From positions 1 to 64,000 of the IMG/VR virus record IMGVR_UViG_3300037249_000709: a stretch of 64,000 nucleotides of DNA; one strand, written 5' to 3'. Shown here piece by piece: positions 11 through 22,458 of the stretch (position 1 is the first letter of the stretch; the number at the start of each line of letters is the position of its first letter). The notes under the pieces are model-generated. The model had not been told where the DNA came from. It did not search any database and saw only the letters and a program-made list of their open reading frames with translations. A program made the position numbers and the translations under genes. The stretch is from a virus (taxonomy: Duplodnaviria > Caudoviricetes).

Positions 11-196
11 ATAAAACATAGATTTTATAGACAAAAGGAGCATAAATGGAAGAATTGACAGATAAATCAAACAATAAATATACAAATAAAGACCTAAAAG
101 AAATGCAATCGTGGGATTTATCCCGTAAAATTCAAGTTTCTAAGGCAAGAATCATTGAATTTTCTGAAAAATTTGATGATAAAATCTATGTTTTAT
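11..196. other. Invertible segment 1 (sites ATAAAA-cataga-TTTTAT, inverted), carries RBS and N-terminus of a PAPS-reductase-like gene
   Basis: 11-28 is the exact reverse complement of 179-196; identity extends to 1-28 vs 179-206. Confidence 0.8.
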
Positions 197-207
197 TTTC
201 TTCCTAA
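46..207 (+). pseudogene. Detached 5' end (53 aa) of a PAPS-reductase-family gene, flipped to + (OFF orientation)
   Basis: AAGGAG RBS + MEELTDKSNNKYTNKDLKEMQSWDLSRKIQVSKARIIEFSEKFDDKIYV, clearly paralogous to the N-terminus KNKYTSADLKEMQGWDLEKKIQVTKARIIEW of 2983-3897. Confidence 0.8.
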
Positions 208-944
208 TACACCGCCACAAGTCTTTCATATATATGCTTCCAATCATTTGCGCGAAGCAACCTCGGCTTTTCGGTATCGCAACCCCTATTGTGCGGTGCA
301 TCCATTAAAATCCTTAACCAAGTTTTCACCCTAATAAGATTATCTGGATTATCGTCGATGAAAATTTGTGCATTTATCATTTCTTTATGACTTGTAATAA
401 TCACTTGTTCCCATTTAATATACGGGAAATATTTCTGTATAAATATCTCGTATTTCATTCTGACATTTCGATAATCGGTAGCAGAGCATAGGTAAATAGA
501 AAAGCCATAATCCATCAGCTTTTTGATATATTTAACCGCGCCCTCTTTTGGTTTAACAGTTTCCCAAAATGATTCTTGTGTTAGTGGCTCAAAAACTTGG
601 CTTTTCGTTAAAGACGGAAAAAACTTACATATGTCCCATTCTGTTACATCCGAAACCTTAATATTAGTATGATACTTTTTATCAAGCCACTCGCACCAAG
701 CCTCGCATAGGTTATTCATAACGTCGTCAATATCAATAGCTATCGAAACGTCTAAAGGCGGTGCTTTTACATATTTTTTTGCTCTACTATAAAAGTTATC
801 AAACGACTCCACATCATTATCGTATAATAGATGTAACCCTGTTCCTTGCAGACTATCAAAATACTCTTTAAGCCTTCTAAGTTCTCTTAACTCACTATCA
901 TTACGAAATTCTTCAAGCGTCATTTCTTTATGTCCTGTCAGCAC
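204..944 (-). CDS. 5'(3')-deoxyribonucleotidase, HAD family (NT5C-like)
   Basis: IAIDIDDV motif I and IFIDDNPDNL motif. Confidence 0.8.
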   Translation of the reverse strand: MLTGHKEMTLEEFRNDSELRELRRLKEYFDSLQGTGLHLLYDNDVESFDNFYSRAKKYVKAPPLDVSIAIDIDDVMNNLCEAWCEWLDKKYHTNIKVSDVTEWDICKFFPSLTKSQVFEPLTQESFWETVKPKEGAVKYIKKLMDYGFSIYLCSATDYRNVRMKYEIFIQKYFPYIKWEQVIITSHKEMINAQIFIDDNPDNLIRVKTWLRILMDAPHNRGCDTEKPRLLRANDWKHIYERLVAVY

Positions 945-980
945 TTTATTAATTATTATCCCCCTATTTTTTAAACCATT

Positions 981-1373
981 TTATGCGTTAAACCACTCTA
1001 ATTTTTTTGTGTAGTAACTATTTAGACGAATGAAAAAATCTTCATAATCATAAGAATTAGAAATATAATCTTTTGTGCAAACCATTATATCCAGTTCTTT
1101 ATTAAAATAATCTCTCATTGACATTTCTGGAACAAACATATCTAACGCATAGTTGAAATCATAGAATACACATAACATATCAATTATTTTTGAGCGTATT
1201 GCTTGATTGATTTCATAATTTAATATATCATTAGTTTCATTGTGGTAAGTCCATCTCCAATCAGCCAATAGTTTTGAATCCGGCAAATAAAGCGACAAAA
1301 ACTCACATACTTCTCCAAGTTCTCTATTAAAGTCATTATCGTGCAAGGTTATTCTTAAATATATATCTTCCAA
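981..1373 (-). CDS. hypothetical protein
   Basis: ORF with GAGGTG RBS, co-oriented. Confidence 0.6.
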   Translation of the reverse strand: MEDIYLRITLHDNDFNRELGEVCEFLSLYLPDSKLLADWRWTYHNETNDILNYEINQAIRSKIIDMLCVFYDFNYALDMFVPEMSMRDYFNKELDIMVCTKDYISNSYDYEDFFIRLNSYYTKKLEWFNA

Positions 1374-2237
1374 TATATCACCTCACAAACACCAAATTGA
1401 TATTAGTTTGCTTTTATATTGCTCAGATGGATTTTTATGTGCAAAAAGATTATTACCATATCCCCGAAAACTATTTCCTAAAAATTCTTCTATTTCAGAG
1501 TCGTTATGCCCTTCCCACATCTTCGCTTCTACCAGTGTGGATTTAAGTCTATAATTCATTTTATGCTCATCCTCTATTATAAATCTATATTTTTATATAA
1601 TCTGCATCTTCTAAATGTTCTAAAACTATTATAAGACATTCTTCATCTTCTTTAAGACAACTTATTTTTAAATGGTAATTCTCTTTTATATCATCATTGG
1701 CACAAGGAAGTATTTTAAGGCTCTTAATTCTTTGCCTAAGAACTTCAAGATTATGTTCATACAACCGACCGTAGTCATCCCAGCCACGATACCCCCAACC
1801 GCGTATATTCCAGTTGGCGTTCAAATGAATTTTATAATAAGCCCTATATCTCCTATCCATCCTTATAACCCTCTCCAATCGCACTAAACAATAGTACAAG
1901 ATTATATAAATCTTCGTCGTTTATTTCATCACAAATATCACTGAGTTCTGAAAACAATGTGTAAAGTGACTTGATAGATGATGAACTACCAGTTTCATAA
2001 ATCGAAACACCATCGGGAGTTTTGCTTGTTATTGTTAGCTTTTTAATTAAATCATTTATGTATTCCATCCATAATGCCCCAAAATATAATCTATCTCAAA
2101 TTTTAGCTGCTTTAGCTCATCTTCATATAATTCAACTAAATACCTACGCCCTGTTTCTCCCTCTTTAGAAATTAGAAAATAGCTATCATAAAACGGGTTG
2201 AAATTAATTTGCTCCTTGTTCCCCACATCTCGTACCC

Positions 2238-2963: not shown

Positions 2964-2982
2964 TTCTTGTTTCCTTCTAATA

Positions 2983-3944
2983 TCATTCTATTTTTACTCC
3001 AATTTCTTTCAAGACTTTCCTCATACCTAAACCGCCCTCATTCCAATTTCTCATACAATAGCTCCATAATTGAGGGTGAGTTTCTTTGAGTCGCTGAAAT
3101 CTATTTGGTTCTTTTTCGATTTGGCATCCATAAGCACAGAAGATGCAGCCCGTCCTATCACATTTTGTAGTGCGATACTGACCGTTCCTATCTTGTATAA
3201 TTTCGCCGTAAACACTTGCATAAGCCACATTGTACTCAACTATATATTTGAGTACATCTTGTTCCAACCAAAATGCCATAGGGTTTGAAATCGGGCGTTC
3301 GCTTTCAAATGCGTTGCAGCCGTTTTTTAACCACGCATTTCGTCTTAAACGGCTTTCACAAGCCATCATAGCAGTAATCGGCTTAACGCCGTATGCTTTT
3401 TCATATGCTTTTACAGGGTTCTTTTTCATCACATCACAGCATAAATGACTTATTGGTATATCGGAATCTTTTAACTTCGCCCATTTAACCACGGAATATG
3501 CAGAACCATATTTTTTATCGTGAGGATTATCCGGCAAAAATCTTTGGGCAGTTTTACCGTTGGGGCAGTTTCGTGCAACATAAATATTTCTCGACACTTC
3601 CTTACTGATTAAAGGATAGCCGTATCTCTCAATCACTTGCCTAAATCCTATTTTGGGTCGAAGTTTTACAATATGCTTCTGACTTAAAGCAAATTCTTTG
3701 ACTTCTGGATATTCTAATCCAGTATCAACATAAACCGCGCAAATATCGGGGTAAATGCTCCTTGCAATATGTAATAGCACAGTCGAATCCTTACCGCCAC
3801 TAAACGATATATAAACCCGCCCATCATTCTTCTCATACCATTCAATTATTCTTGCTTTGGTTACTTGTATTTTCTTCTCCAAATCCCAGCCTTGCATCTC
3901 TTTGAGGTCTGCCGATGTGTATTTATTTTTAGATGAATTAGATT
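2983..3944 (-). CDS. PAPS-reductase-family (PP-loop) protein, putative DNA modification; native start lies in inverted segment 2 (currently OFF or N-truncated)
   Basis: SFSGGKDS, DTGLEYPE, CCDVMKK, RTGCIFC motifs; frame open upstream of 3897 up to the site but no start codon there. Confidence 0.8.
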
Positions 3945-4102
3945 TTTTATAGGCAAGTTATATAGAGAAGTTCTCATAAATTGAGGAAGTTTAGCAAGGC
4001 AACTAAAAACATTTTGCAACATTGACTAATGTTGTAAATATATGAGTTACCAATTATTGGGAGGTTATTAATAAGTGAATGATGATAAAAAATCTATTTT
4101 AT
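3933..4102. other. Invertible segment 2 (spacer aatcta)
   Basis: - strand ATAAAA-aatcta-ATTCAT at 3933-3950 vs + strand ATAAAA-aatcta-TTTTAT at 4085-4102; inversion fuses GGAGG..GTG AAT GAT GAT AAA AAA TCT in frame to the gene. Confidence 0.85.
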
Positions 4103-4357
4103 TGAATTATATCTTCTGAATATACATTTCACAATAGTCATCCCAATTATTAGCTTCTACAACAATATAAGTCTGCTTATTGTGTTTCACTAATATACCC
4201 TCTGTCATAGCAAAATTAGGTTCAAAAAATATTCTTCTTACCTTGCTGCCACGCCCTTTATCATCGGGCTGAGAATCACATCTATATGTTTTTTCATCAA
4301 TTTCTATGTAACTATTATTAAAAACTTCAAACATTATTTCATTCCTTTCTGCTTGTG

Positions 4358-5317
4358 CTATTTGTCTATCCATTCTTTATAATGTTTTACAACATCTATC
4401 AACCAACCATAACTATCAAATGTGCTACCTTGCCACTTTCTATCACACATTCTGCTCCAACTCAACGCTATATCCTCTGCTGAAACACCATACATCAACT
4501 CTCCATCAAGATTGATATAAGGTAGTCTTAATATCACTTTCCTATCCTCTGGTTTGACTCTTCTATATCCTACTTTTTTAATCTCGTATCTTGGAGACGT
4601 AGCATAAGACGGAACTTTTGCTTTTTCGGATTGATAGAATTGCAAGAACACTTCTTTATTCTCGAACCACTTTACTTTGGATTGACCACAAATATTATCT
4701 GGCGTTGCAAGAACATAACTTACAAGAACAGCATTAGGATTATCATGGAATCTCTCCCACTCTGTTTTGTTAATCTTATTTGGCATTGCTGCTTTTTCTG
4801 CACTATAAATATAGCCCAGGTCATCAACCCAAAGTATTTCTCCCTCTTTATCGTAAAACCTTTTTGCTTTCATCTTTTTGATTTCTTTAGGTGTTACAAC
4901 AAAACCTTGTGACAATTCTACGGCAGGTCTACCAAACCACTCACAAAACTCCTTCGGATTGCTTAATGTCCAAGGAATAGGATTCATCAAACCTCTGCAA
5001 TCCCACCTCTGATACTCACAATAATCATAAAAATCTTCACCATCGGTATAGAGCTTAACGAGAATAAAACTATCATTGCGAGGATATTTATAGATTTGCT
5101 TCTTATCGTTCTTAGCTATTAGTTCCAAATTGCTTTTGATTTGGTTTATGTATTCTATATAGGACATATCTGTATCTTGCTCAATAGAAATGACCTCGAA
5201 ATTTTTACTCCACTTGTCATACATAGTCTGTTTATCTTCGCCGTAAAGTTTGACATCTTCTATGTTACCGTCGGGATATTTGAATTTAATTCTCCAGCGT
5301 GGAATTATATTAACCAC
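4358..5317 (-). CDS. hypothetical protein
   Basis: 319-aa ORF with RBS. Confidence 0.6.
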   Translation of the reverse strand: MVNIIPRWRIKFKYPDGNIEDVKLYGEDKQTMYDKWSKNFEVISIEQDTDMSYIEYINQIKSNLELIAKNDKKQIYKYPRNDSFILVKLYTDGEDFYDYCEYQRWDCRGLMNPIPWTLSNPKEFCEWFGRPAVELSQGFVVTPKEIKKMKAKRFYDKEGEILWVDDLGYIYSAEKAAMPNKINKTEWERFHDNPNAVLVSYVLATPDNICGQSKVKWFENKEVFLQFYQSEKAKVPSYATSPRYEIKKVGYRRVKPEDRKVILRLPYINLDGELMYGVSAEDIALSWSRMCDRKWQGSTFDSYGWLIDVVKHYKEWIDK

Positions 5318-5325
5318 CTCTATTA

Positions 5326-6102
5326 TTAGTCATTGGTCTTGGTTAGATAATCTTTAAGCATTGTGTCTTTTGCCTTTGTGTAAAACTCTGTATTGGTTTC
5401 AAATCCATAACTATTTCTTCCACATTCAGCCGCTGCTCTCAAAGTTGAACCGCTGCCAGCAACAGGGTCTATTACTATATCGCCCTCATCTGTAAATATC
5501 TGAATTAACTGTTTTAGCAATCCAATAGGTTTTTGTGTTGGATGAATTTTGGGATATTCTTTTGCACTATCCCTTTTCCACTCAAACCAGTTAAAAATCA
5601 TTCTCTTTTTGCCTTCGGAATCTACATTATTGAACTTTGGTAATTTGTCTCTATATAAAACCATCGCATATTCGGTAGCCCCAACAATTTTCATATTTGC
5701 TTTAAGTACCTGTGCAGAATAATTCTTGCAAAATACCAATGGGTAATTATGATTAAACCCATGTTTTTTACCGTATTCTACAACAGTGGGTATCTGCTCA
5801 AATGCACAGAATACTATCATTGCAGGTGCTTTATTTCGCTCTTTTGGCTCTTTTATCAACAACTTGTTACAGAAATGAAAGAACTCGGCAATGTTGAATG
5901 AGCCGTCACCGTTGAAGAAACTTTTTGCAGCTTTCTTACTTTCTCCATTCTTGTTGTCCCCCCCCTCATACCACATAGGGTTTGAGGCATAAGCATTAAC
6001 TCCGAGATTATAAGGAATATCCGCTATAACTAACTGACCTTTTCTGATGTTGTATTGTTTATAGTTTTGAAAATTATCGTGATATAATTCTGTTTTTACC
6101 AA
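5326..6102 (-). CDS. DNA methyltransferase (N6A/N4C, beta class), G8 tract in frame
   Basis: DIPY, HPTQKP, DPVAGSGST; C8 on + at 5958-5965. Confidence 0.9.
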   Translation of the reverse strand: MVKTELYHDNFQNYKQYNIRKGQLVIADIPYNLGVNAYASNPMWYEGGDNKNGESKKAAKSFFNGDGSFNIAEFFHFCNKLLIKEPKERNKAPAMIVFCAFEQIPTVVEYGKKHGFNHNYPLVFCKNYSAQVLKANMKIVGATEYAMVLYRDKLPKFNNVDSEGKKRMIFNWFEWKRDSAKEYPKIHPTQKPIGLLKQLIQIFTDEGDIVIDPVAGSGSTLRAAAECGRNSYGFETNTEFYTKAKDTMLKDYLTKTND

Positions 6103-6875
6103 TTATTCTCCCTCTTTCTACGCATCTTCGTTTGAAGGTATATCAACAAATTTGCTAAAATCTATCTTGTCGAGCTTTAATAATCCATCGAACCCATCAT
6201 ATAGGTTTCTGGCAATAATATCTTTGTTTCTACCCTTATCGGAAATGCTAATCTGAATACTATCATGATAAACTGTGATTCGTACAGCTCTATGATTAAG
6301 CGAACGCCCGAAATTTATATCCATAATATCAAAATATCCGTATCGTCCACGCTTATCAGACTCGTAAATGCGAGCATCACAACGAGTTAAGTAGGGTTCA
6401 TATTCTGTATCATAGAATAAAGCCCTTATTTTTGTCACGAGTTCATATAAATATTTGTCCATTTATTTGTTACCTTTACCTATAAACATATTTAATTTAA
6501 ATACTCACGAATATCATTTATCATTTTTTCTGTTTCGTCCAACAAATATCTATAAGCATCATTTGTGTAGATTTCAAAATAGGGAATTGGGTTGTCGTTT
6601 TCATCATACATATATCCCAACTTTGATTCTGAATCAAAATAGACCGAAACTGTTTTGTCATTCTTTTTTATTACAAATCTAACTAATGCACCTGCAAACG
6701 CAGGAATAATTTTAACTTCCCAATCAGAGTCAAATTTAAAATATGGCAGTTTCTCTCCCCATTCTCTCCACCGTTCATTGTTCTCAATCTGAAACCTATT
6801 TGCTATATCCAAAAAATCAATCATATTATATCCTTTCTATGATAAGTTTGATTCCTATATTTTCTTTCATAAATA

Positions 6876-7328
6876 TCACAATAGCCTATACACAAACACA
6901 GTACAATTTTTTAGTTCCTCTACAATGATGGCGGCAACATCAAGCCACCTACCTCCGCCAAGACCGCACCCCATTTTATAAGGTAATCCTACTATCTTTC
7001 CTTTATAATAAGAGTTCACCAATTTTAAGCATTTTCTTAAAGCATCATAGTCTGTGTATTGCTTGTCTCTACCATATCCATCCTGAGCAAACAAGTTTAC
7101 TACATCTTGATATTCATTTATATGAACTCCCTGTATGAAACCCAAAAGTGATTTTGTGTCATCTTTATGTTGTTTGCAAAGGGAAACATACTCGTCATAA
7201 ACCATCGGATATTTATTCCGAATTTGTTTAGCAAGACCACTTCCCATTACTCCTTTGCAATTTACTTGATGAAGAATGGCATCGGCATTGCTATCTAATA
7301 AATCAGCATCATCTATGATATGAACGAT
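6876..7328 (-). CDS. macro domain (ADP-ribose processing) protein
   Basis: frame extends upstream of the called ATG to IVHIIDDADLL..ILHQVNCKGVMGSGLA; PYKMGCGLGGG; start possibly ATC. Confidence 0.8.
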   Translation of the reverse strand: MVHIIDDADLLDSNADAILHQVNCKGVMGSGLAKQIRNKYPMVYDEYVSLCKQHKDDTKSLLGFIQGVHINEYQDVVNLFAQDGYGRDKQYTDYDALRKCLKLVNSYYKGKIVGLPYKMGCGLGGGRWLDVAAIIVEELKNCTVFVYRLL

Positions 7329-7474
7329 ATGAAATCACTTCTCTCTTTTATGTAATTAACTTCGGTTTCTTTGTGCTTCGTTGCGGAATCAAACCGAAAA
7401 ACTACCGCAAGACGCTTAACCACTACAGACCTCCCACGGGGGTTTTAATGACTTTGCCTTGTCAATGTCGTTTG

Positions 7475-7876
7475 TTAGTCTTTGTAATCTGGTACAAATG
7501 GAATCCACATCTTCGGATTGTAGTTTATCTCATAGTGATACTTGCTAACTTCGCTACCCGTTATATCTTCGACTGTATATGTTACATTATCTGACAAACC
7601 AATAAAGTGTTTTTTGTATTTGCCCGCATCAGTTTCGACAATTATTTCAAGCTGATTATCTTCGGTGTCAGCTTCTATATTCATTCTACCTTCAATCTCA
7701 AATAAGGTGTCGCCTTGAATACAGTTTATTACCGTTACCCTACGATAAACATTGAAATTCTGTGCGTTCTCTGTGATATTGTAATTAACTCTCTCTGCTT
7801 CGTTACAACCGCTTGCCGAAAAAGCAAGAACCACCAAAGATAATAGCATTATAAAGTTTCTTGTAATTTTTCTCAT
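7475..7876 (-). CDS. phage lipoprotein
   Basis: signal peptide with lipobox ASGC. Confidence 0.7.
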   Translation of the reverse strand: MRKITRNFIMLLSLVVLAFSASGCNEAERVNYNITENAQNFNVYRRVTVINCIQGDTLFEIEGRMNIEADTEDNQLEIIVETDAGKYKKHFIGLSDNVTYTVEDITGSEVSKYHYEINYNPKMWIPFVPDYKD

Positions 7877-8269
7877 CTTATCTCTCCTTTATATGTCAAT
7901 ACTCGATTACCGCAGCAAGGGCATTCGCAACAATAGTATTCAATCGAAAATGATGATTTTATTTCGTATTCGTTGTGATTTGCTTCAAATATGCAATCGC
8001 AATCATTGCATTCAAAGCTAACAACTTTATTTAACTTGTCTAAATTACCATCTCTAATAATTTTCACTTTGCAACCCTTTTAATATACCTTTCTAAATCT
8101 GCCGGATTTTCTGCTTTGTGATTGGTTTTAACCAACTTTCCATTTTCAACTTTACATAGATAATATATATCCCGAATTTTTGTTGAAGTAATAGCATAAG
8201 CTGGCTTGCCATCAATTAGATATGTGACCCAAATGGTTTCATTCTTTGGAGCTTCTAACATATCTCACC

Positions 8270-9304
8270 TCACTGAGCGGTTCTATCTGCACGATGGAGC
8301 AGCATTACTTCGTTAAAGAAATCTTCGCCCAGCAAATCTCTGTCTCTTTTGAGCGCTTTTTCGCTCTGCTTCCACGACAAAAACGGGTGCATATGATAGT
8401 AAATCAAGTTTGCAATATGTATCATCTCGTCCTCATTTGGTGACAAATTGTATGTATAAAACAAAGAGTCATATGCTCCGCAATGCTGATGATTGTAATA
8501 ATGACATTCATTTGTTTCTTCGCCTTTTGCGTTAAGGTGGGATTTAGTAAAAGGCTTACCAATGTCGTGTAAAAGAGCTGCCAAATACAAGTTATAGTTA
8601 TCTGGGCAAAGATAAATAATGTTTACAGCGGCTTGTATGCAATGGTCGCCGATAGTCCTTTTGTGATGTCTGTTTTCTTGTTCTATGCTGCAAGCGTTGA
8701 TTTCGCCACCAAAGAAATTGTGTAAATTATACTTGGTTTTTATATCAATATCTCCGAAAGAATAGCACAACACAATATCATCGAATCCTTCTTGCTTTGA
8801 AGGAGGACACCATTTCAAATACATTGACCTTATTACATTTTCTGGTACTATCCTTTCTCTACCCACATTATTCTTCAAACAAAGTTCGTAAGGTGTCATA
8901 ACGCAAACTGCCACATTAAAACAATCAATGTTTTTCAACTCTCGAATAAAGTTAATACGAAACTTCTTGTTAATGTTGGTGGCATCAAAAACTACATCTT
9001 TGCCGTCCTTTAAATCTTGTTTCATTCTCTTATGAAGCTCGGAGAAAATCATTCCGTTGTCGCCCTGTGTTTCTTCTTTTCCGAACAGCTCTTTTCTTAG
9101 ACTGTCGGAAGAATGAATAACCGGACGAGAGTATTCACCGGTATTTCTTTCTACAACAAGGTTGTCAGCAATGGTAGACTTGCCGCTACCTGGCAAACCT
9201 ATCATAGTGAATAAAACTGGTCTTTTATCGACATTTTCGTTGCGATAAACCCTCAATTCTTGGGGATTTTCATTTTTGACTTCAAAGTACATTTTCAATG
9301 CCAC
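8270..9304 (-). CDS. polynucleotide kinase (P-loop) fused to HD phosphohydrolase
   Basis: GLPGSGKST, DATN, ALLHDIGK, YHMH. Confidence 0.85.
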   Translation of the reverse strand: MALKMYFEVKNENPQELRVYRNENVDKRPVLFTMIGLPGSGKSTIADNLVVERNTGEYSRPVIHSSDSLRKELFGKEETQGDNGMIFSELHKRMKQDLKDGKDVVFDATNINKKFRINFIRELKNIDCFNVAVCVMTPYELCLKNNVGRERIVPENVIRSMYLKWCPPSKQEGFDDIVLCYSFGDIDIKTKYNLHNFFGGEINACSIEQENRHHKRTIGDHCIQAAVNIIYLCPDNYNLYLAALLHDIGKPFTKSHLNAKGEETNECHYYNHQHCGAYDSLFYTYNLSPNEDEMIHIANLIYYHMHPFLSWKQSEKALKRDRDLLGEDFFNEVMLLHRADRTAQ

Positions 9305-10958: not shown

Positions 10959-11038
10959 TAAATATCAAGTCCTTTCTTATAATGTGATTATTTGGGTTGT
11001 TTTTTAATGTTACAATATGCCCTTGTCCCTACATTTTT

Positions 11039-11086: not shown

Positions 11087-11144
11087 CTTAACTTTAAAAA
11101 ATGTATGCCACTATGTTTTTTGTTCATAATGGCATACAACATAG

Positions 11145-12113: not shown

Positions 12114-12127
12114 TTTCTCATTCTCCT

Positions 12128-13156: not shown

Positions 13157-13164
13157 CTCACTCC

Positions 13165-13276
13165 TTGACATATTAGAAAATATAATGTATAATCATAAAA
13201 AATACGGTCTGATTTTCTAACCGTGAATTTATTATATCAGATAATTTTCTATATGTCAAGCACAATTTTAGAAAAT
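13165..13276. promoter_or_regulatory. face-to-face sigma-A promoters with TAGAAAAT operator repeats
   Basis: + TTGACA-17-TATAAT at ~13165-13193; - TTGACA-17-TATAAT at ~13231-13259; TAGAAAAT/ATTTTCTA four times. Confidence 0.75.
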
Positions 13277-13302
13277 TAGACCGTTTTGGAGGTGAACTTA
13301 CT

Positions 13303-13662
13303 ATGCAAGAAACTTTATATGAACGAATCAAAAAATTATGCAAGCAAAAAGGTGTCACTATTGCAAAGCTGGAGTCTGAACTTGGATTTGGCAATGCTTC
13401 CATAAAGAAGTGGGAGCGTATAAGCTCTCCGTCTGTTGACAAAATAATAAAAGTGGCTTCTTATTTTGGTGTCACAGTCGATTATTTGCTCGGCAGAACC
13501 GACATTAAAAGCTCGGCTTCGGAAATTTTACAAGACGATGACATCATATCATTTCAACGAGCAAGGCAGAAAATGCCCGAAAAAGACAAAAATAAAATGA
13601 TGCAGATGCTCAAAATTAGTTTCGATTATGCTTTTTCTGACGAGGAGGACAACAATAGTTAA
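13303..13662 (+). CDS. XRE-family HTH repressor (ImmR-like)
   Basis: HTH_3 pattern IAKLESELGFGNASIKKWE..PSVDKIIKVASYFGVTVDYLLG. Confidence 0.9.
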   Translation: MQETLYERIKKLCKQKGVTIAKLESELGFGNASIKKWERISSPSVDKIIKVASYFGVTVDYLLGRTDIKSSASEILQDDDIISFQRARQKMPEKDKNKMMQMLKISFDYAFSDEEDNNS

Positions 13663-14301
13663 ATGTTAAGGTACGCATACATCAATCAGTTGGTTTTAAG
13701 TATTTATAGAGAGCTACCCATAGTTTCATTCCCTATAAATCCACAAGACATTATTAAACACATATCAAATTGCCGTTATATGTCTTATCAGCAATTTATG
13801 AAGTTAAATGGCTGCACCCTCGATGATGTTATCCAAGTCTGCGAAAGTAAGTCTGGCTGTACCCACTATGATAAATCTACTAATCGCTATCTTGTATTGT
13901 GCAATGAATCTTTTGACAACAATAATAACTCTGGTAGACAACGTTGGACGTGCAGCCACGAAATAGGTCATATAGTTTGCAAGCATCACACATTATCTGC
14001 TTATAGCAAATTATCTGAAAATGGCTTGTTAAAAGTTGATAACGAGATTTTTGAAAAAGAAGCCGACTATTTTGCAGCTACTATTTTAGCACCGTTCCCC
14101 CTGTTTAAAGTGTTGAATATTAATACACCAGAACAGGTACAAGAAACATTCGGTTTGTCTCACGAGGCTGCAACTAATAGATTTGAACAATATCTAAAAT
14201 GGAAACACGACCATAGAAAAACATCTTGGGAGAACGACATTGTTAATGTGTATTTAAGAAAGAAAAGATTATCAGAACTGCAAGAGGAAAGTTATCAATA
14301 G
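13663..14301 (+). CDS. ImmA/IrrE-family metallopeptidase
   Basis: RQRWTCSHEIGH and EKEADYFAATILAP, adjacent to XRE. Confidence 0.9.
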   Translation: MLRYAYINQLVLSIYRELPIVSFPINPQDIIKHISNCRYMSYQQFMKLNGCTLDDVIQVCESKSGCTHYDKSTNRYLVLCNESFDNNNNSGRQRWTCSHEIGHIVCKHHTLSAYSKLSENGLLKVDNEIFEKEADYFAATILAPFPLFKVLNINTPEQVQETFGLSHEAATNRFEQYLKWKHDHRKTSWENDIVNVYLRKKRLSELQEESYQ

Positions 14302-14304
14302 CGA

Positions 14305-15022
14305 TTAAGCCACATCATCTATCCTTCGCTTTGCTATTTCAAAATATTTCTCGTCCAATTCAACGCCTATAAACTTTCTGCCACTATCTCTACACGCAAC
14401 TCCTGTGCTGCCGATACCCATAAAGGGGTCTATCACTACATCATTCTCTTTTGATGAGTTTTCGATTAGTATTTTCATTAGCTCTATCGGTTTTTCAGTA
14501 TCGTGCAAATTTTTACCGTCCTCTCCCTTTGTTTTAACGTTGGGAACGGATAGTATATCGCTTGTGCCACAATGATTTATTTTTATGCCTTTGCCTTTTC
14601 GGAAAAACATTATATATTCATACTGTGACATATAATATTGCCCCATTATTTTGTTGCCCTTATTCCATATAAGACATTTAATAAAATGAAAACCAGCCTC
14701 CGTGAAAGTGTTAAGCATATTGATGAGATTCACGTGATTTGTCATAACATAACAATGACTTCCATCTTTTAATATTCTATAGAACTCTGGAGCATAATCT
14801 TTGCAGTCTATACTATTACACGAAAAAACTTGTCCTTTCTTATTTATTTCCTTTTGCAACATCCCGCCACTATTACCAGCATTTCCACGAGATGTTGTAC
14901 GATAGGGCGGGTCTGTAACTAATAAATCTATGCTTCCTGCTTCAATGTCTGAAAGCGTTTTTAAGCAATCCCCTCGAACAAGTCGAATTTGTTCGGGGGG
15001 GAGTTCTATATTTAAAACTCAT
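14305..15022 (-). CDS. DNA methyltransferase (N4C/N6A), frameshifted at a C7 tract (OFF)
   Basis: GDCL..TDPPY upstream of the called start, HDTEKP, DPFMGIGST; ATG at 15022 in frame only with C6/C9 (G7 on + at 14995-15001). Confidence 0.85.
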
Positions 15023-15048
15023 ATTATGTATTATTCCTTTCGGTGGTT

Positions 15049-15288
15049 TTAAGCACGTAGCACATATGTACTATATTTTGCTGTATTTCCATATCTATCA
15101 GTACACTCACTATTGACGCTTTCTATCGTGTATATTTTTCGTAGATTGTAGATAATTGCGCTCAATCGCGTTGCACCATAAAGGTCAATAGCCTCAAAAC
15201 TTGTAATTGAACCGTGTTTCTGTAAATGCTCTAAAACTTTCTGCGTCTTGTTGGTAGTTCTTTTCTTTGTCTTGTTGTTCCCAACCAT
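15049..15288 (-). CDS. winged-HTH DNA-binding protein
   Basis: GSITSFEAIDLYGATRLSAIIYNLR. Confidence 0.7.
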   Translation of the reverse strand: MVGNNKTKKRTTNKTQKVLEHLQKHGSITSFEAIDLYGATRLSAIIYNLRKIYTIESVNSECTDRYGNTAKYSTYVLRA

Positions 15289-15349
15289 AATTTATCATTC
15301 TCCCTACATTTTATTTATTTGAAGAATCGCCTAATAATATAGGCTTAAT

Positions 15350-16141
15350 TTAATCTTTATCCGTTACCTCAATAATCTTCCACCCAGCTCTGGTCGCACT
15401 TTCTCCACAGTTGGTCGTAAGTGTTCCGATGGTTGATTGGTCACTTCTGACTCTGCTATTATAATCATCATAAACCAACATTAAACTCCCCCCGGAGCTG
15501 TCGAGAGATGGGTTTTCAACAGATGTCTTTTGCTTATCAATATCTTCAAACAATCTATTTAGACCAATCTCGAATGCTCCTATGCCAGAAAAGTAGCTAC
15601 CAACCTTCAAATCATCAAACAAGTACGGCATTGCTGAATATAATTCTTTAAAAATATGATACAACACATCTGTCACGATAGAGTTGCCAGCTTGTTTGTA
15701 GAGTTGCGTATTGCTTACTCCGGCATTTCTTGCATTTTCAAAGTCCTCATCAGAAAATCCCATTAAACGCCAACACTCTTTTGGCGTAAGTTTTCTAATA
15801 CGATAACCAATATCCGTGTTATTTATCACTTTTATACCGCTCCTATTAGCTCGTTGTGTGGGACAATAGTCTGTTGTTTTTTCGCCCCACCCCTTGTCCC
15901 TATCGTCAAAGAAACAAGGAACTTCTGTGTGTTTAATTTCAATCACTTGTTTATCCCTCACAAAGTCCTTTTTACACTCCCATTGTTCAAGTAAATATGT
16001 ACACTGTGTAGCTCCTGGATTTGCCTGCAATGCTGGGTGTATATATCTAATTTCTCTTTTTCTCGTCTTTACTCCATCACCAGCTTTATGCGAAAAATTA
16101 TTTGGAGTTAGTAGACATATTTTCGTGTTGCTCACATTCAA
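15350..16141 (-). CDS. C5-cytosine MTase C-terminal part (motifs IX, X, then permuted motif I)
   Basis: RKLTPKECWRLMGF, LYKQAGNSIV, followed by FSGIGAFE. Confidence 0.85.
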   Translation of the reverse strand: MNVSNTKICLLTPNNFSHKAGDGVKTRKREIRYIHPALQANPGATQCTYLLEQWECKKDFVRDKQVIEIKHTEVPCFFDDRDKGWGEKTTDYCPTQRANRSGIKVINNTDIGYRIRKLTPKECWRLMGFSDEDFENARNAGVSNTQLYKQAGNSIVTDVLYHIFKELYSAMPYLFDDLKVGSYFSGIGAFEIGLNRLFEDIDKQKTSVENPSLDSSGGSLMLVYDDYNSRVRSDQSTIGTLTTNCGESATRAGWKIIEVTDKD

Positions 16142-16280
16142 TTACTCCATTCATAGACTGATTGCCAAAGCCTTTATAATCTCTTGCCATAAGTGTATTA
16201 GCTATATTGATTTCTCTGTCTATCTTGCTACATTGCCGAGAAACTAATACAGTATGGATGGCACTTGAACCACATCCCAT
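16098..16280 (-). CDS. TRD-like module of the split C5 MTase
   Basis: IANTLMARDYKGFGNQ..GVIE; in frame with 16291-17061 if the G tract is G7. Confidence 0.55.
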   Translation of the reverse strand: MGCGSSAIHTVLVSRQCSKIDREINIANTLMARDYKGFGNQSMNGVIECEQHENMSTNSK

Positions 16281-16290
16281 TGATGTCTGT

Positions 16291-17061
16291 CTATACTTCC
16301 TCTCCCCCCCCGGCTCTTATGGCATTAGAAACGGCTTTTTCGAGTTTACCACTTGCAATTAAGTTTTCAATAAGCTCTCTTGCTTTTGGCGTATTTATGT
16401 AATATTTTTTATCGACTTCATCTTCGAGCATATCTTTTAAGCGCAAGCCATTATCGAATGGTTCTGGAAACTTGAAAAGTCCATTATCAAATTCTTTTAG
16501 TATAATAATTAGATAAACTCGCTCACGATTTTGAGGAATACCGTAATCTTTTGCGTTTAGAACTTTATAATAAGTGTTGTAACCATATTCATTAAGTTCT
16601 TCAATAAACATCTGAAATGTATCTTTGAATTTTTTACCTACGATATTTTTGACATTTTCATAAATTCCCCATCGAGGCTTGTTTGCTCGAATAACTCTTA
16701 GCCATTCAACCAGTAGCGAACTCCTTGTTTTATCCAAGTTTTCACTTTCACACTTCGGACATCTATGGCGTTTGGAATAATGAACTGTTAAAGGATTATA
16801 TTCTTCTCCGCAGTCAAGACACTTCCACATACTACCAGCTCCCTTGCCTGCTACTGAAAAATCTTGACAAGGACTGCCGCCACATATCATATTAAACGGC
16901 TTTAAGTTATGCTCGTCCACCTTTGTTATATCGCCCAGATTAAGTGATTCACTAACCTTGTGTACAGCACAATAACTTTTTGTGGCATACTTATCAAATT
17001 CACAAAAGTTTACAAGTTCATAACTTCGTGTATTTGAATTATCACTTTTATTCATTTCCAA
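16291..17061 (-). CDS. C5-cytosine MTase N-terminal part (motifs II-VIII, Zn-ribbon insertion)
   Basis: FCEFD, GDITK, GGSPCQDFS, CLDC..CPKC, ENV, PQNRERVY; no motif I. Confidence 0.85.
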   Translation of the reverse strand: MEMNKSDNSNTRSYELVNFCEFDKYATKSYCAVHKVSESLNLGDITKVDEHNLKPFNMICGGSPCQDFSVAGKGAGSMWKCLDCGEEYNPLTVHYSKRHRCPKCESENLDKTRSSLLVEWLRVIRANKPRWGIYENVKNIVGKKFKDTFQMFIEELNEYGYNTYYKVLNAKDYGIPQNRERVYLIIILKEFDNGLFKFPEPFDNGLRLKDMLEDEVDKKYYINTPKARELIENLIASGKLEKAVSNAIRAGGGEEV

Positions 17062-17190
17062 TTCTAAAAACCCTCCTAAACTCGGTGTTTTCTTTATTTA
17101 CTAAATAAATTGCAGTTGATAGATTTTCCTTTTTCTTCCCATAAATTGAGAACTTCTTCTGATTAAACGTAGATAAAAGTGATATTTTAT
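17034..17190. other. Invertible segment 3 (spacer gtgata), ON
   Basis: - ATAAAA-gtgata-ATTCAA at 17034-17051 inside codons NKSDNS; + ATAAAA-gtgata-TTTTAT at 17173-17190. Confidence 0.85.
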
Positions 17191-17646
17191 CTACATTTAA
17201 ACCTCAAAAAAATCCTCAATTATTGGGCTTTTTTATTTTGTCTATTTTTTAAAATCCCTATCGTTTATCGCCGTAGCGACGGCGAGGAAGATTACCACAA
17301 GAAATATTAATAATGCGGCAGAAATCCACGTTGGAGATAGCACCCACCACCAAGACCATTCGATTACATTGAGTAGTTTGAGTGTGATAAATACAATTTG
17401 TAATAGTCCCCAAAATCCTATGCCACCGCTTGCTGCGGGGGGTGCTACTTTCGTTTGGCTTACTCATATATTACTCCTTCACCTTTGGCTTCTTAATGTC
17501 GTATGCCATACGCTCGTAGTCCTGCATATACCTATTGTTCTCTTTGAGATACTTTTTGAGCATATCATACTTTGCAGCCTTTACTACCAACTTTTCAAAC
17601 TTCTTCTTGCTTATTTTCATTATTTATTCTCCTTTTTTATTTCATC

Positions 17647-18177
17647 TTACATTTTAACTTTCTTTTCAACCACAACAATAGTATCATTGTGCCAGCCGCC
17701 GTGAGCCACCAACAATATTTCTTGTGTCACAAATCCATATTTCTTTCCAATGCCCCCTGAGTTCCACGAGCAAGTTATTACAATTCCATTGGGTTTTACT
17801 ATCCTGCTTATTTGTTCCTTTTGCTGCGACCAGTAACTCGATTGTGTGGTTTTAGTATCGACTGTTAAACCTAATTTTCTGTAGCACTCTGAAACTTGTC
17901 TTGGAGAATAGGGTGGGTCATACAAAACCGTATCAACAGAATTATCATCAAACCGTTTAAGAAATTCGGTGGCATCAAGATGATATGTAGTATCATACGC
18001 CGGGTCAATATCATTTGTTATTGTCGCAAGTTTATTGTTATTTGCAAACGGGTCTATAACTAACCCGAACTTGTACTTATTGATAATGTCGGCGATTGGT
18101 TTAATTGAAAATGTCCTGCTATTTGGCATTGCCCATTTCCTATTTATCTCTGGCAATATACCACCTCTTATTTTCAT
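17647..18177 (-). CDS. small adenine-specific DNA methyltransferase-like protein
   Basis: VIDPFA, DPPYSPRQ, HGGWHNDTI. Confidence 0.75.
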   Translation of the reverse strand: MKIRGGILPEINRKWAMPNSRTFSIKPIADIINKYKFGLVIDPFANNNKLATITNDIDPAYDTTYHLDATEFLKRFDDNSVDTVLYDPPYSPRQVSECYRKLGLTVDTKTTQSSYWSQQKEQISRIVKPNGIVITCSWNSGGIGKKYGFVTQEILLVAHGGWHNDTIVVVEKKVKM

Positions 18178-18714
18178 CTTCTATTTTTTGCCCCACAATT
18201 TGGGCAATAGTCATAATAGCATTTGTAACAATAATTTGCTGTCTCAACTACCCCTTTACACGCCGAACAATGCCATGTCTTAGTAGGCAGCACACGCCCG
18301 CTTTGCCATATACCGTGTTTTATAGCTGGGCGTTCTTCTAACCGGTTTGATAAATCCTTTTGAATATAAGATTGCATATATTTAACATCATCATATAACT
18401 CCTCTAATTCAAATTGAAAACAATCGTAGTCAAAATCAGGAGATACACTTTCTTTACAGTAAAGAATGCGGTTAAGAACATCATCTTTAAGCACTAATTC
18501 TTTGTTCATTGCCAAATTACATCAACTCTTTTCGTTGGTATTATATAGCTTTTTCATTGCTATCTCTACCGCACATAATGCTTCATAGTCTTTCATAATT
18601 TCTTCTCTTAATTCAGGGCTTTCTTCTTCACACATAGCTGCCATACTTCTACGCAGCATAGACCTAATGCGACTAATCCATTTCTCGATGTTTCTATCAA
18701 AACTGTTTTCCATA

Positions 18715-18972
18715 TCAATCTCCGACTATTCTAATATTCCAAAGTCTAACAGCCGCTTCATCGCTCGAAAACTCTGTACTTATTGTTACTTCTTTGGCTT
18801 GTGCGCCACAACGTCTGCATTTCACAAAAGAAGTTCTTTCAGCTTGATTAAATGTCGCTTTGCCGCCACCGTGTACAAGGTCGGCTTCTGCTCCACAAAA
18901 CGGACAAGGCAGAATATCAGAATTTGTTCTCTCTACATCAATCAGTTCCATATTTATTTTCCTCTTTATCAC
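18715..18972 (-). CDS. Lar-family restriction alleviation protein
   Basis: LPCPFCG..C..CGA..A..WN. Confidence 0.7.
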   Translation of the reverse strand: MIKRKINMELIDVERTNSDILPCPFCGAEADLVHGGGKATFNQAERTSFVKCRRCGAQAKEVTISTEFSSDEAAVRLWNIRIVGD

Positions 18973-19727
18973 TTATTAGTTTTGCTCCGCATTCTTCACA
19001 ATACTCTGTAGGATAGTCTTGTATATGTTCACACTCGCTACATACATAATCTGTCCACTCGCAATCTCCAATAGGCGTTGCTTTGGGGTATGTTGATATT
19101 ATCCAGTGTGGCTTGTTTTCTCTTTTATTGAGTTCTTCGCAAACATCTTTATAAAAATCAACCCATGATGTCGGTATGCTTGAATTATTAAACCCCAATT
19201 CAGTTATTTCATTCATTGTTTTCTTGTAGTATTCATAATCTTTCTTGAACTCATACAATACTTCATTGTTAAGATGCGGCAGTAAACATTTTATATAGGC
19301 AATATCTGCTATAATTCTATCGGATGTTCCTCCCATTGCACATCTTACAGCAAAATTAAGAATATCTCCGAACACCCCATTATCTACCTCCACAACCACT
19401 TTGCTATCAAACTTGCCGTGTATGCCCTTATCCCAATCATTTATTTCATCAGTTCCTGACGTAAATTTATACTCCATCTCTTACCTCACAAAATATTCTT
19501 CACTATTATTCCAAGACTTTTGATATTCAAAATAACGGTAACATTGGTAAAACATAAAGCACGGCTTGTCCAAGCAATCATCATAATTATGCTTTTCGCC
19601 ATACCAATTCTCGCAGGCGTGACACATTTTCATTAAGTCATTATCTTGATTGAGGTTTTCTCGTATTCTCCAATAATCGTCTTGAATAAGTTTTTTAGTA
19701 TCATCACACATTCGGCTTCACCCAATG

Positions 19728-20456
19728 TCAAACAGGAATACCAGCTTTCTTGCAAGCATTCTGCCAATCACTATATTCATCCAATAGCTTTTCGTAAAGT
19801 TCTTTATCGCTAATTTTTACAATATCATTTATTTCTACAAAATTAGCATTATCGACAACTCTGCCGGAGATGTTATCCAAATGTTTAAGAAAATCAAAGC
19901 CACCCGAACCAATACCAATAAACTTCCAGAAGATATTATATTGAGATGCATCGACAATGGCTTTCTCTGCTTCATACCTATCGAAGTTATCTCCGTCAGT
20001 AATGAAAATCACAAATGTTGGAGTTTTTGATTTAAACAGCTTCCCGTAAACGCTTGTGATTTTCTTCATTACAGGCGAATAATTTGTTCCACCCATAATT
20101 TCGTGTTTACCCAGAATCACATTCTGAACATAAGACTTTATGTTAGACAAGGTAACTGCTTTTAGCTGGACAAAATTATTATTGAATAGATAAAACTCCA
20201 TTTTCTGGTTATCGTCAAAAACCATAGCCATTGGGAAAACTCTTTCAAGCAACTCTTGTACTCTACCCGAAGTATATTCCTGCTGCATTGAGCCGGACTT
20301 ATCTAATACGAAAACGACTCGCGCCTCCATATTAGAGGGAGGGTTCTTTGAAACAACATCTTCGAGCGTTTCTTTTCTCAAAGTTAGCTTCTTCTTGCTC
20401 CCATCATCAATAATCGGTGGTGCTTCCTTTTTTATTAGTCCATTAAAAATTCCCAT
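19728..20456 (-). CDS. vWA domain protein (TerF-associated type)
   Basis: DKSGSM MIDAS, GGTNY, FITDGDN, WKFIGIG, RVVDNANF. Confidence 0.85.
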   Translation of the reverse strand: MGIFNGLIKKEAPPIIDDGSKKKLTLRKETLEDVVSKNPPSNMEARVVFVLDKSGSMQQEYTSGRVQELLERVFPMAMVFDDNQKMEFYLFNNNFVQLKAVTLSNIKSYVQNVILGKHEIMGGTNYSPVMKKITSVYGKLFKSKTPTFVIFITDGDNFDRYEAEKAIVDASQYNIFWKFIGIGSGGFDFLKHLDNISGRVVDNANFVEINDIVKISDKELYEKLLDEYSDWQNACKKAGIPV

Positions 20457-20493
20457 CTTATTTGTCCTCCTAATATGATTTTGTATAATGTAA

Positions 20494-21399
20494 TTACTTG
20501 CATTGTTTCATACAGTTAAAAATATGTACTATGACTCCCACAGTCCAACCATTCCCGATACATCTTGCTCTTTCTCTATCGCTTACTCCAAGAGTGTACC
20601 CTTGTGGAAGATTCATAGCCAATTCTGCTTCTTCATTTGTTAAGTAACGGTATCTTTCACCATCGGTAATCAAAACCATACCGCTATGACTTTGGTTGTA
20701 ACCTCTTGCTGTCAAGCAAGGAAGTTTTACACCACTACCAATCAATGTGGCACATTCAAGTGGTTTCTGTTGTGCTTTCCACTTTGAAACCTTATCAATA
20801 TATTCTTGGCTTAACCACGAATTATCATTTTTGTTTATGTCATCAAATGTTATATTGCTTTCTTCTGGCTGCGTGATAGAGAAATTTGCCCAATATAGCC
20901 TATCTCTCCTTGCAGCGGAAACAGTCGATGAGTTTATTCTTACTGGCTGCACACCCAGCTTTTCACTAATAATATCCTGCCACTCCGCTTTCATTTTCAC
21001 ATTTTCAAGCAAAAATTTTATATTTGGATTTCTGTCTTTTATGTAATTTAAAATATCGACATAAACAAAGAATAGTTTACTTCGTGGGTCTTGAAAATTT
21101 AACATATTCCCTGCTAAACTAAATCCCTGACAAGGACTACCGCCTATTAGCAAGTCGATATTGCCCCAATCAACATCCCATTTTCTCCAATTATTAACAT
21201 CTCCTAAACGAATAATATCTGGATAGTTATTTTGGCTTACCTTTATAGCATTAGGCTCGATTTCGCTTGCATAGTATTTATCGACCTTGATGTCTGCCAT
21301 TTCAAGTGCAAGCATACCGCAACTAATACCATCAAATAAACTCAAAACATTTATCCCATTCGGTTTGGATAAAATAATTCTTTTATTGCCATTCTGCAA
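20494..21399 (-). CDS. C5-cytosine DNA methyltransferase
   Basis: LFDGISCG, GGSPCQGFS, ENV, GNGW; likely TTG start at 21399 after AAGGGGG. Confidence 0.9.
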   Translation of the reverse strand: MQNGNKRIILSKPNGINVLSLFDGISCGMLALEMADIKVDKYYASEIEPNAIKVSQNNYPDIIRLGDVNNWRKWDVDWGNIDLLIGGSPCQGFSLAGNMLNFQDPRSKLFFVYVDILNYIKDRNPNIKFLLENVKMKAEWQDIISEKLGVQPVRINSSTVSAARRDRLYWANFSITQPEESNITFDDINKNDNSWLSQEYIDKVSKWKAQQKPLECATLIGSGVKLPCLTARGYNQSHSGMVLITDGERYRYLTNEEAELAMNLPQGYTLGVSDRERARCIGNGWTVGVIVHIFNCMKQCK

Positions 21400-21539
21400 T
21401 AATAAATCCCCCTTATTACTCATCTTTTTTATATTCTCATAATTCTTTTTAAGCACTTTCTTTTAAGTATCATTAAAAATATGTTCTCAATTATTGAGGA
21501 CTTAATTTAATTTTTATGTAAATAAAAGAATTATTTGCT
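21369..21539. other. Invertible segment 4 (spacer gaatta), ON
   Basis: 16-bp inverted repeat AATAAAAGAATTATTT; sites at 21369-21386 and 21522-21539. Confidence 0.85.
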
Positions 21540-21550
21540 AAACAATATAC

Positions 21551-22345
21551 TTATGCCGCATCGCATTGCTCCAACGCATTCTCAATTCTATCTATTGCTA
21601 TGTCATAATACTTCTTTTCTAATTCAATCCCAACAAATCTACGGTTTGTATTTACGCAAGCCACACCAGTTGAGCCGCTGCCCATACAATTATCAAGAAC
21701 CAAGTCGTTTTCATCCGTATATGTTTTTATTAGGTATTCTAATAATGATACCGGCTTTTGTGTTGGGTGAAACTTGTCTTTATCTCTTGTAAATTTCTGA
21801 ATTGTTTTAGGATGCCGCAGTCCAGATGGATTATCGGTTACTATGTTTTTTAGTCCACCCTTCCAATTCTCTGACACCCTTCCCGACATTTGTTTGTATG
21901 GCTTACCCTCTGTCTTTTGTGGGTGATATTTCATTGGAGTCTTTGTACCGTTAGTCACACGCCCTTTGCCGAAGATAAATACAAATTCGTGGATTCTGAA
22001 TGGTTGAAGATTGACATTAGGAGCATTAGTGCCATTGTCCTTTTCCCATACCCAATCATACTTGTATAAATCTTTTGCTATGGAGTAGAGCTGAAATCCA
22101 AACTTCATTGTACCATTTAACGCTATACAACCATCGTCTGTAATAATTCTTCTATACTCATTAAACAGCTTTTCAAGGTCAACCCCTTTATCCCATTTAT
22201 TGCCTGTTTCTACATAAGGCAAATCACACAAAACCATATTCACACTTTTGTCGGGTATCGTTTTTAACACTTCAAGACAATCTGCATTGTGTGTTGTTAT
22301 CCTACTTGGCGATAAAATATCTGTTTTATTTATGCCTTTGTTCAT
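21551..22345 (-). CDS. DNA methyltransferase (N6A/N4C, beta class)
   Basis: DLPY, HPTQKP, DNCMGSGSTG. Confidence 0.9.
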   Translation of the reverse strand: MNKGINKTDILSPSRITTHNADCLEVLKTIPDKSVNMVLCDLPYVETGNKWDKGVDLEKLFNEYRRIITDDGCIALNGTMKFGFQLYSIAKDLYKYDWVWEKDNGTNAPNVNLQPFRIHEFVFIFGKGRVTNGTKTPMKYHPQKTEGKPYKQMSGRVSENWKGGLKNIVTDNPSGLRHPKTIQKFTRDKDKFHPTQKPVSLLEYLIKTYTDENDLVLDNCMGSGSTGVACVNTNRRFVGIELEKKYYDIAIDRIENALEQCDAA

Positions 22346-22458
22346 AATACCTCCGTTTTCTACATTTTTCGCTCGATAGTTTCATAATAATATTGGTTTT
22401 ACACACGCCAAAGCCCCAATTATTGAGGGTTATGGTGTGCATAAAACAGATATTTAAT
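22312..22458. other. Invertible segment 5 (spacer cagata)
   Basis: 15-bp inverted repeat ATAAAACAGATATTT; sites at 22312-22329 and 22441-22458. Confidence 0.85.

Follow-up and report, generated by a model that had tools for sequence, protein, structure and literature searches.

The question raised by the first 64 kb of IMG/VR virus contig G000 (record IMGVR_UViG_3300037249_000709) is whether five short segments, each placed across the 5' end of a DNA-modification gene, are switches that the phage inverts one by one, and which recombinase would invert them. This stretch, hereafter the window, covers positions 1 to 64,000 of a contig of 166,766 bp, which is rated 100% complete and represents a phage of ~167 kb from the gut or rumen. 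Window positions 16-141 recur as the final 126 nt of G000, and this overlap of the contig ends indicates that the genome is circular or circularly permuted. The results given below make it very likely that the five segments are site-specific invertons, probably flipped by a tyrosine recombinase, which turn DNA-modification genes ON and OFF independently of each other.

Paired inverted sites at five DNA-modification genes

Each of the five segments, 147-186 bp in length, ends in two inverted 18-bp sites of the form ATAAAA-N6-TTTTAT, located exactly where a first-pass annotation made from the sequence alone had placed them. The inner arm and the 6-bp spacer together form a perfect 12-mer in all five pairs, so the spacer is identical within a pair and differs between pairs, as had been claimed, with the five distinct spacers CATAGA, TAGATT, TATCAC, TAATTC and TATCTG in segments 1 to 5, respectively. 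The segments, named here as invertons 1 to 5, and the genes that they adjoin are as follows:

1-206, plus strand: inverton 1, sites 11-28 and 179-196, ribosome-binding site (RBS) 36-41, ATG 46-48; OFF
G000 165833-166653, far contig end, outside the window: body of PAPS-reductase-like gene 1
3933-4102, plus strand: inverton 2, sites 3933-3950 (outer arm ATGAAT) and 4085-4102; OFF
2983-3932, minus strand: body of PAPS-reductase-like gene 2, its own start absent when OFF; PAPS_reduct at 2983-3897 (Pfam/PHROGs)
17034-17190, minus strand: inverton 3, proximal site 17034-17051 (outer arm degenerate), distal site 17173-17190; ON
15350-17061, minus strand: C5 methyltransferase of inverton 3, circularly permuted, with 16291-17061 continued in 15350-16141 (Pfam/PHROGs)
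15818-15835: third half-site with the spacer and inner arm of inverton 3, in the 3' module of the methyltransferase
21369-21539, minus strand: inverton 4, proximal site 21369-21386 perfect and inside the coding sequence, distal site 21522-21539 with outer arm TTTGCT; ON
20494-21456, minus strand: C5 cytosine methyltransferase of inverton 4 (Pfam/PHROGs)
22312-22458, minus strand: inverton 5, proximal site 22312-22329 perfect and covering codons 5-11, distal site 22441-22458 with one mismatch; ON
21551-22345, minus strand: N6/N4 amino-methyltransferase of inverton 5 (Pfam/PHROGs)

The gene types assigned by the first-pass annotation (two PAPS-reductase-like proteins, two C5 methyltransferases and one amino-methyltransferase) are upheld by Pfam and PHROGs. 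Its further claim that one site of each pair lies inside the 5' coding region also stands, except that the body of the gene belonging to segment 1 is found at the far contig end and not in the window. At every locus the gene-proximal site falls within the first 5-47 codons, and the RBS and the start codon are inside the segment. The interior of inverton 1 holds the first 47 codons of PAPS-reductase-like gene 1, that of inverton 3 contains AGGAGG and ATG (17055-17053), and in inverton 2 GGGAGG (4059-4064) and GTG (4075-4077) point away from the gene. The state captured by the window genome has the three methyltransferases switched ON and the two PAPS-reductase-like genes switched OFF.

The exact ATAAAA-N6-TTTTAT motif occurs 10 times in the window with 0.09 occurrences expected, and inward-facing spacer-matched pairs occur five times in the genome as compared to a mean of 0.06 and a maximum of 1 in 200 dinucleotide shuffles. 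In a repeat search, all five pairs, with interiors of 111-136 nt, were among the eight longest short-range inverted repeats of the window. The arms measure 6 bp and are sometimes a few bases longer. When the five pairs are considered together with that of a related phage, G005, five of the six arrangements comprise one site that is an arm-perfect palindrome and a partner with 1-3 outer-arm mismatches; in the inverton of another phage, G006, the mismatches are in the outer arms of both sites. Thus, all five loci present a segment bounded by inverted repeats, as site-specific invertons do, and the sites have the organization of a tyrosine-recombinase core site, namely inverted arms around an asymmetric 6-bp overlap that is identical in the partner sites.

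Both orientations occur in nature

A megablast search of the phage collection revealed no close relative. Same-species contigs from other samples were retrieved from public assemblies via exact identity of neighbouring proteins. Locus 3 has the window orientation in L254, L256, L257 and L259 and is flipped in L258 and L260, with interiors 98.3% identical and flanks 98-99.5% identical. Locus 4 has the window orientation in the window genome and, by gene calls, in a contig of SRR12150676; it is flipped in L256 and L257 (interior 99%, flanks 98-100%) and also in L147 and L261, whose interiors are more diverged. The junctions at both loci are exact reciprocal inversion products with end points inside the sites. 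Such end points, together with the matching 6-bp spacer between the arms, fit the action of a tyrosine recombinase. Locus 3 ON co-occurs with locus 4 ON in the window and with locus 4 OFF in L256 and L257, and these differing combinations argue that the two loci switch independently. The independence claimed earlier for all segments is hence borne out for loci 3 and 4.

At locus 1 the evidence comes from the ends of G000 itself, as the 15 nt preceding the shared overlap differ between them. At the contig end, these 15 nt belong to the body of PAPS-reductase-like gene 1 (..SFSGGKDS); at the contig start, window positions 1-15 are the reverse complement of 192-206, the far-side flank of segment 1. 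The contig-start arrangement is the exact reciprocal junction predicted for an inverted segment 1. The two sites of locus 1 share just 13 bp, far under the 141-nt assembly word, and therefore the flipped junction must come from reads; with both junctions at contig ends, the sample must have contained both orientations. Other contigs also break at sites: L256 starts exactly at the locus 5 proximal site and L259 one base before the locus 4 proximal site, both being points of divergence between the orientations, and L261 ends 12 nt into the flipped locus 3 interior. Such contig ends hint at mixed orientations.

Locus 2 was OFF in all seven covering assemblies, five of which had been found without bias via a neighbour gene, and when its ON state was sought through two neighbouring genes, OFF contigs alone were returned. 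The earlier proposal that every locus flips is consequently borne out for loci 1, 3 and 4, which are real natural invertons, and locus 2 is a candidate inverton; at locus 5 a contig break is what there is to support it. The comparison with related phage genomes that had been suggested as a check yields both orientations for loci 3 and 4, and also for inverton B of the relatives described below.

Consequences for the reading frames

Flipping in silico between the spacers generates a 317-aa frame from ATG at locus 1 and a 325-aa frame from GTG at locus 2. The two resulting PAPS-reductase-like proteins are collinear and 52% identical from residue 5 onwards, across both junctions, which indicates that the ON forms are the natural full-length proteins. 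Automatic gene calls follow the orientation as well, with 320 aa for locus 4 ON and 283 aa for the flipped form, and 254/269 aa and 199/224 aa, respectively, for locus 3. The frame effects that the first-pass annotation had predicted agree with these in-silico flips and gene calls: flipping strips the RBS, the start codon and the first codons from the gene. The switched genes at 2983-22345 share the minus strand, and the region that holds them is dense with anti-restriction functions; as they are co-directional in a dense cluster, read-through transcription is likely. With the site placed within the gene, translation would be expected to be shut off tightly in the OFF state. A reading of the segment interiors as promoters was considered and found unconvincing by eye, with no promoter scan made.

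The methyltransferase at locus 3 appears to be controlled twice. It is spread over two or three frames, in the order motif X (QAGNSIV), then motif I (FSGIGAFE) in the downstream ORF, and these frames are joined at a G tract at 16304-16311 (minus strand), whose length is 8, 7 or 6 among assemblies, giving rise to ORF fusions of 254+60, 269 or 318 aa. The variable tract suggests a second, slipped-strand switch. The additional half-site at 15818-15835 is kept in relatives, and comparison of these relatives revealed no rearrangement involving it.

The same architecture in other phages

More distant phages carry invertons of the same design at the same kinds of genes. G005 contains one, with spacer AGATTG, at the 5' end of an amino-methyltransferase, and G006, a 169-kb phage with almost no alignable shared DNA, contains one at the 5' end of a C5 methyltransferase. 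In contigs L148, L149, L152, L154 and L167, which encode amino-methyltransferases 75-79% identical to that of the window, three invertons A, B and C are found together. Inverton A covers the first 55 codons of a C5 methyltransferase and is OFF in all three contigs having it, inverton B covers the last 25 codons of the amino-methyltransferase, and inverton C the last 63 codons of a PAPS-reductase-like gene. Inverton B points one way in L149 and L152 and the other way in L154 and L167, with the flanks of L149 and L154 being 97-100% identical. Two contigs have the spacers TTAAAC/GTTTAA at inverton C and the third has TTGGAC/GTCCAA, a double compensatory change present in both copies; co-variation of spacers within pairs across homologues, which the first-pass annotation had required, is thereby observed. 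No inverton was present at the amino-methyltransferase gene of IMG/VR relatives at 69-75% identity, and inverton B was not found in the IMG/VR scan. A tandem repeat in L152 that pairs with a site-like word was examined and set aside as unrelated.

A separate observation concerns L003/L018 (6105-6381) of a 105-kb relative, where a perfect 16-bp inverted repeat with a half-motif (AAAGTTTGATTTTATT / AATAAAATCAAACTTT) encloses an entire 70-aa gene on the strand opposite to its neighbours and could delimit an invertible gene cassette.

A model for independent switching

In the proposed mechanism, a tyrosine recombinase, most likely, would bind the arms and pair the two sites of one locus, and strand exchange across the matching spacer would invert the segment. 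The invertase is probably phage-encoded. Because the spacers differ between loci, recombination between loci would not take place, and the segments could flip independently with the genome remaining unscrambled. As each segment carries the RBS, the start codon and the first 5-47 codons, a flip would turn translation off despite upstream read-through; segments 2-5 also carry ~100 bp of upstream DNA with a predicted regulator box. The benefit would be a varied modification of phage DNA in the face of restriction and modification-dependent nucleases, and we infer that hedging against restriction is the purpose of the switches.

Several observations weigh against this reading. Ten copies of the 18-bp motif in this genome are without a partner, as are 3-12 copies in each of the relatives, some of which have no inverton that could be found, and the arms may have another binding partner instead of the invertase or in addition to it. 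Switching within a sample is seen solely at contig ends, a contig break is the sole sign of inversion at locus 5, and locus 2 may be locked or strongly biased to OFF. The variable G tract splits the locus 3 methyltransferase, and a role in DNA modification is attributed to the PAPS-reductase-like proteins from their family membership. Lastly, no recombinase gene lies beside any of the invertons and none is linked to the sites.

Candidate recombinases

Three intact tyrosine recombinases are encoded in the whole genome. A serine recombinase is not, as judged by the lack of any PF00239 match in the whole genome, and together with partner-site identity that spans the 6-bp spacer this speaks against an invertase of the Hin/Gin type. 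The relevant genes are:

48929-49891, minus strand: tyrosine recombinase candidate C (P0003), catalytic R, HxxR, H and Y invariant among homologues
47222-48250, minus strand: divergent neighbour of candidate C with a weak recombinase-fold signal, kept beside candidate C in relatives
Genome 99317-100363: Xer-like recombinase, full-length, two-domain
Genome 135645-136850: integrase of 401 aa, the third intact tyrosine recombinase

The first-pass annotation had named a single recombinase, that of 48929-49891, for all five loci. This assignment is one possibility among several: the genome offers three intact enzymes and co-occurrence across relatives singles out none of them; candidate C and the Xer-like enzyme are about equally probable as the invertase. 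That candidate C alone serves all five loci is possible, falling short of probable. The enzyme is intact, with catalytic residues that do not vary among its homologues; such homologues are found at 61-66% identity in the motif-rich phages G001-G005, and G005 carries an inverton together with a 61% identical homologue. However, no inverton was found in G001-G004 despite the presence of the homologue (these genomes are 52-83% complete), the complete genome G008 has the motif and no homologue at E<=1e-5, and G006 has an inverton with a homologue that is just 28% identical. Candidate C furthermore has no recognisable N-terminal core-binding domain and is encoded 26 kb from the nearest inverton.

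Equally tentative is the attribution of flipping to the Xer-like recombinase, a two-domain enzyme of the kind acting on arm-6-arm sites. Its alignments with the XerA, XerC and XerD models extend over the entire length, its nearest solved structure is XerA, and homologues are present in every complete or near-complete relative with the motif or an inverton (G001, G002, G003, G005, G006 and G008). Nevertheless, G010 contains a homologue and no exact site, the enzyme has no direct link to the sites, and the gene looks like a core gene of the clade, which could have another job such as the resolution of genome multimers.

Flipping by a host recombinase or by the 401-aa integrase is unlikely. The integrase is found only in G000, the genome richest in invertons, but its gene is bracketed by different inverted repeats of its own, for which reason it was disfavoured as the invertase; these repeats are of 13-19 bp (TAGGAATAAACTCA..) and are situated at L226 1059-1077 / 1440-1452 and 2687-2705 (genome ~135.6-136.9 kb). 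The integrase is also absent from G005, and G006 has just a 29% identical relative. The lack of a close relative in sister phages suggests a separately acquired mobile or invertible module. A host enzyme is disfavoured by the conservation of the arms across very divergent phages, which fits a phage-borne recombinase. That the pairs are paired operators or RNA hairpins and the inversions mere assembly errors is highly improbable: unpaired copies of the motif do lie between genes in promoter-like positions and a palindromic box lies inside segments, but independent assemblies from different samples and assemblers contain inversions that are exactly reciprocal and end within the 18-bp sites, the repeat of 12-18 bp shared by the sites is below the word sizes of assemblers, and spacers co-vary within pairs.

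Two repeats near recombinase genes were noted alongside. The palindrome GTTATAGGATATCCCTATAAC is found at both contig ends of the 169-kb G006 (L234 1-80 and the end of L242), beside its relative of the 401-aa integrase, and may be the site of that integrase or another assembly break at a recombination site. In the window, a 28-nt inverted repeat (48224-48251 / 48555-48582), 82% complementary and 303 nt apart, spans the start codon of the 47222-48250 gene and the 3' part of ORF 48288-48689; the region 48224-48582 could be a further invertible segment with a different type of site.

Unpaired sites and a palindromic box

The motif is also common as unpaired sites, a fact overlooked by the first-pass annotation and one which suggests that the arms may have a second role. 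Eight of the ten exact sites without a partner in the genome are intergenic. The sites to be singled out, with a palindromic box that is associated with the invertons, are:

9211-9228: unpaired exact site, within a polynucleotide-kinase-like gene, 76 nt from its 5' end
34024-34041: unpaired exact site, intergenic
52376-52393: unpaired exact site, intergenic
55826-55843: unpaired exact site, exactly between a stop codon and the RBS of the next gene
21484-21498: palindromic CyCAATwATTGrG box, inside inverton 4

In relatives, G001-G006 have 4-12 motif sites each, with none for a reversed-pattern control, and in the complete genome G008 three methyltransferase genes in a row are each directly preceded by one site, these being the only three of that genome. 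L212, a more distant 128-kb phage contig, contains 15 sites within 20 kb (1-20729) at stop/start junctions, often overlapping the stop codon and extending into the ATG that follows. L212 and L207 both have a site with spacer TAGGCA, which adjoins different genes in the two. Several unpaired sites are placed 12-14 nt upstream of a conserved ACTATATATTGTG box, in a position like that of a -35 element. No partners were found near the unpaired sites of relatives, other than in the G005 inverton.

The best precedent for a second role of the arms is MrpR of SPbeta, a catalytically dead repressor with a recombinase fold, which binds an element repeated in some ten promoter regions (PMC10516654). In G000, no protein could be tied to such a role with Pfam, PDB and BLAST searches on 47222-48250, and this neighbour of candidate C was rejected as an MrpR-like dead recombinase, its Pfam match being just 14.5 bits and support from PDB and BLAST being nil. 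A broader and rather speculative proposal, more doubtful than the assignment of either leading enzyme, is that the 18-bp motif constitutes an addressable code for recombination and regulation across a wide clade of large gut/rumen phages, in which the arms would be read by one recombinase-fold family and the spacer would serve as the address, with same-address inverted pairs acting as switches and unpaired sites as operators or docking sites. Such unpaired sites might serve as operators, in the manner of the SPBRE sites to which MrpR binds, or as heterospecific docking sites for the swapping of gene cassettes between co-infecting phages.

Boxes similar to that of inverton 4 are found at 4049-4063, 17213-17227 and 22413-22427, one being in or beside each of invertons 2-5. 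The box, which has a longer form GTTCTCAATTTAwGGGAA, is present in many copies in a 1.6-kb non-coding region (genome 73300-74950) between divergent gene blocks. It is probably a binding site for a phage regulator.

Relation to known switching systems

RecV of Clostridioides difficile is a single tyrosine recombinase that operates many switches, among them cwpV, flgB, cmrRST and pdcB. It is the closest working analogue of the switches proposed here, with scattered short invertons away from the recombinase gene, each with repeats of its own and each controlling ON/OFF expression of one gene. The likeness is functional only: RecV acts on a bacterial chromosome, on repeats without a common arm motif, and via promoters, terminators and 5' leaders, whereas in the present phage the arms are shared, the spacer alone differs, the start codon is what flips, and the targets are the phage's own DNA-modification genes. 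The closest logical analogue is provided by heterospecific lox/FRT variants such as lox511 and lox2272, used with Cre/Flp, which have the same arms and different spacers and recombine only with their own kind, such that inverted pairs flip independently under one enzyme. Those sites are however man-made and of 13-8-13 design, and the present ones are natural, 6-6-6 (perhaps longer), usually with one degenerate outer arm per pair.

Programmed inversion carried by phages or plasmids and leading to population heterogeneity is exemplified by the G segment of Mu and the C segment of P1 (Gin, Cin) and by the R64 shufflon (Rci). Gin and Cin are serine invertases that use 26-bp sites, a 2-bp crossover and an enhancer, and swap tail-fibre C-termini and so the host range, with one segment per genome. 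By contrast, the present phage has no serine recombinase and five separate ON/OFF switches, none of them on a tail-fibre gene. The fimS element, inverted by FimB/FimE, is bacterial and moves a promoter only; fimS and the intragenic invertons of gut bacteria resemble the phage segments in having short inverted repeats with a site in or just before the coding sequence and ON/OFF or recoding outcomes. Inversion alters methylation patterns, often by means of a tyrosine recombinase, in type I hsdS shuffling and in phase-variable methyltransferases such as phasevarions and BREX PglX (PMC7672463, PMC9881135). These are bacterial defence systems in which specificity domains are swapped between long repeats inside the gene, in contrast to orphan phage methyltransferases turned ON and OFF by a flip of the 5' end (3' ends in relatives).

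Described in the literature are bacterial epigenetic invertons, gene-altering inversions, Bacteroides promoter invertons, RecV and surveys of structural variants in phages, and a literature search returned no account of multiple invertons with which a phage controls methyltransferase or PAPS-reductase genes of its own. Escape from restriction by means of phage-encoded methyltransferases is known, as is phase variation of methylation in bacteria. If the switching proposed here is true, one phage lineage would release particles with different DNA-modification patterns, and such a mixed stock could be hedged both against hosts in which unmodified DNA is cut and against those in which modified DNA is cut. 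It would also affect how host range and phage defence are read from genomes, as one assembly would represent one of up to 32 states. Furthermore, nature would here provide short recombination sites that are orthogonal to each other and served by one small recombinase, a possible genetic tool once the enzyme is known.

Neighbouring genes

As to the host, there are mere hints: a dockerin is encoded elsewhere in the genome, and one related contig was binned with a Gastranaerophilales metagenome-assembled genome. A class-V aminotransferase/cysteine-desulfurase-like gene (L262 4727-5836, genome 164727-165836) comes directly after PAPS-reductase-like gene 1 and overlaps it by 4 nt, an arrangement reminiscent of DndA-DndC and SspA-SspD in DNA phosphorothioation. 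Besides the switched genes, the cluster encodes an S-adenosylmethionine synthetase (29056-30123), a Lar-like protein and additional methyltransferases. In other phages, PurZ, a protein of the adenylosuccinate-synthetase family, makes 2-aminoadenine DNA. A protein of this family is encoded at 25867-27066 of the window, near the S-adenosylmethionine synthetase gene, and an NT5C nucleotidase gene is also present in the window at 204-944.

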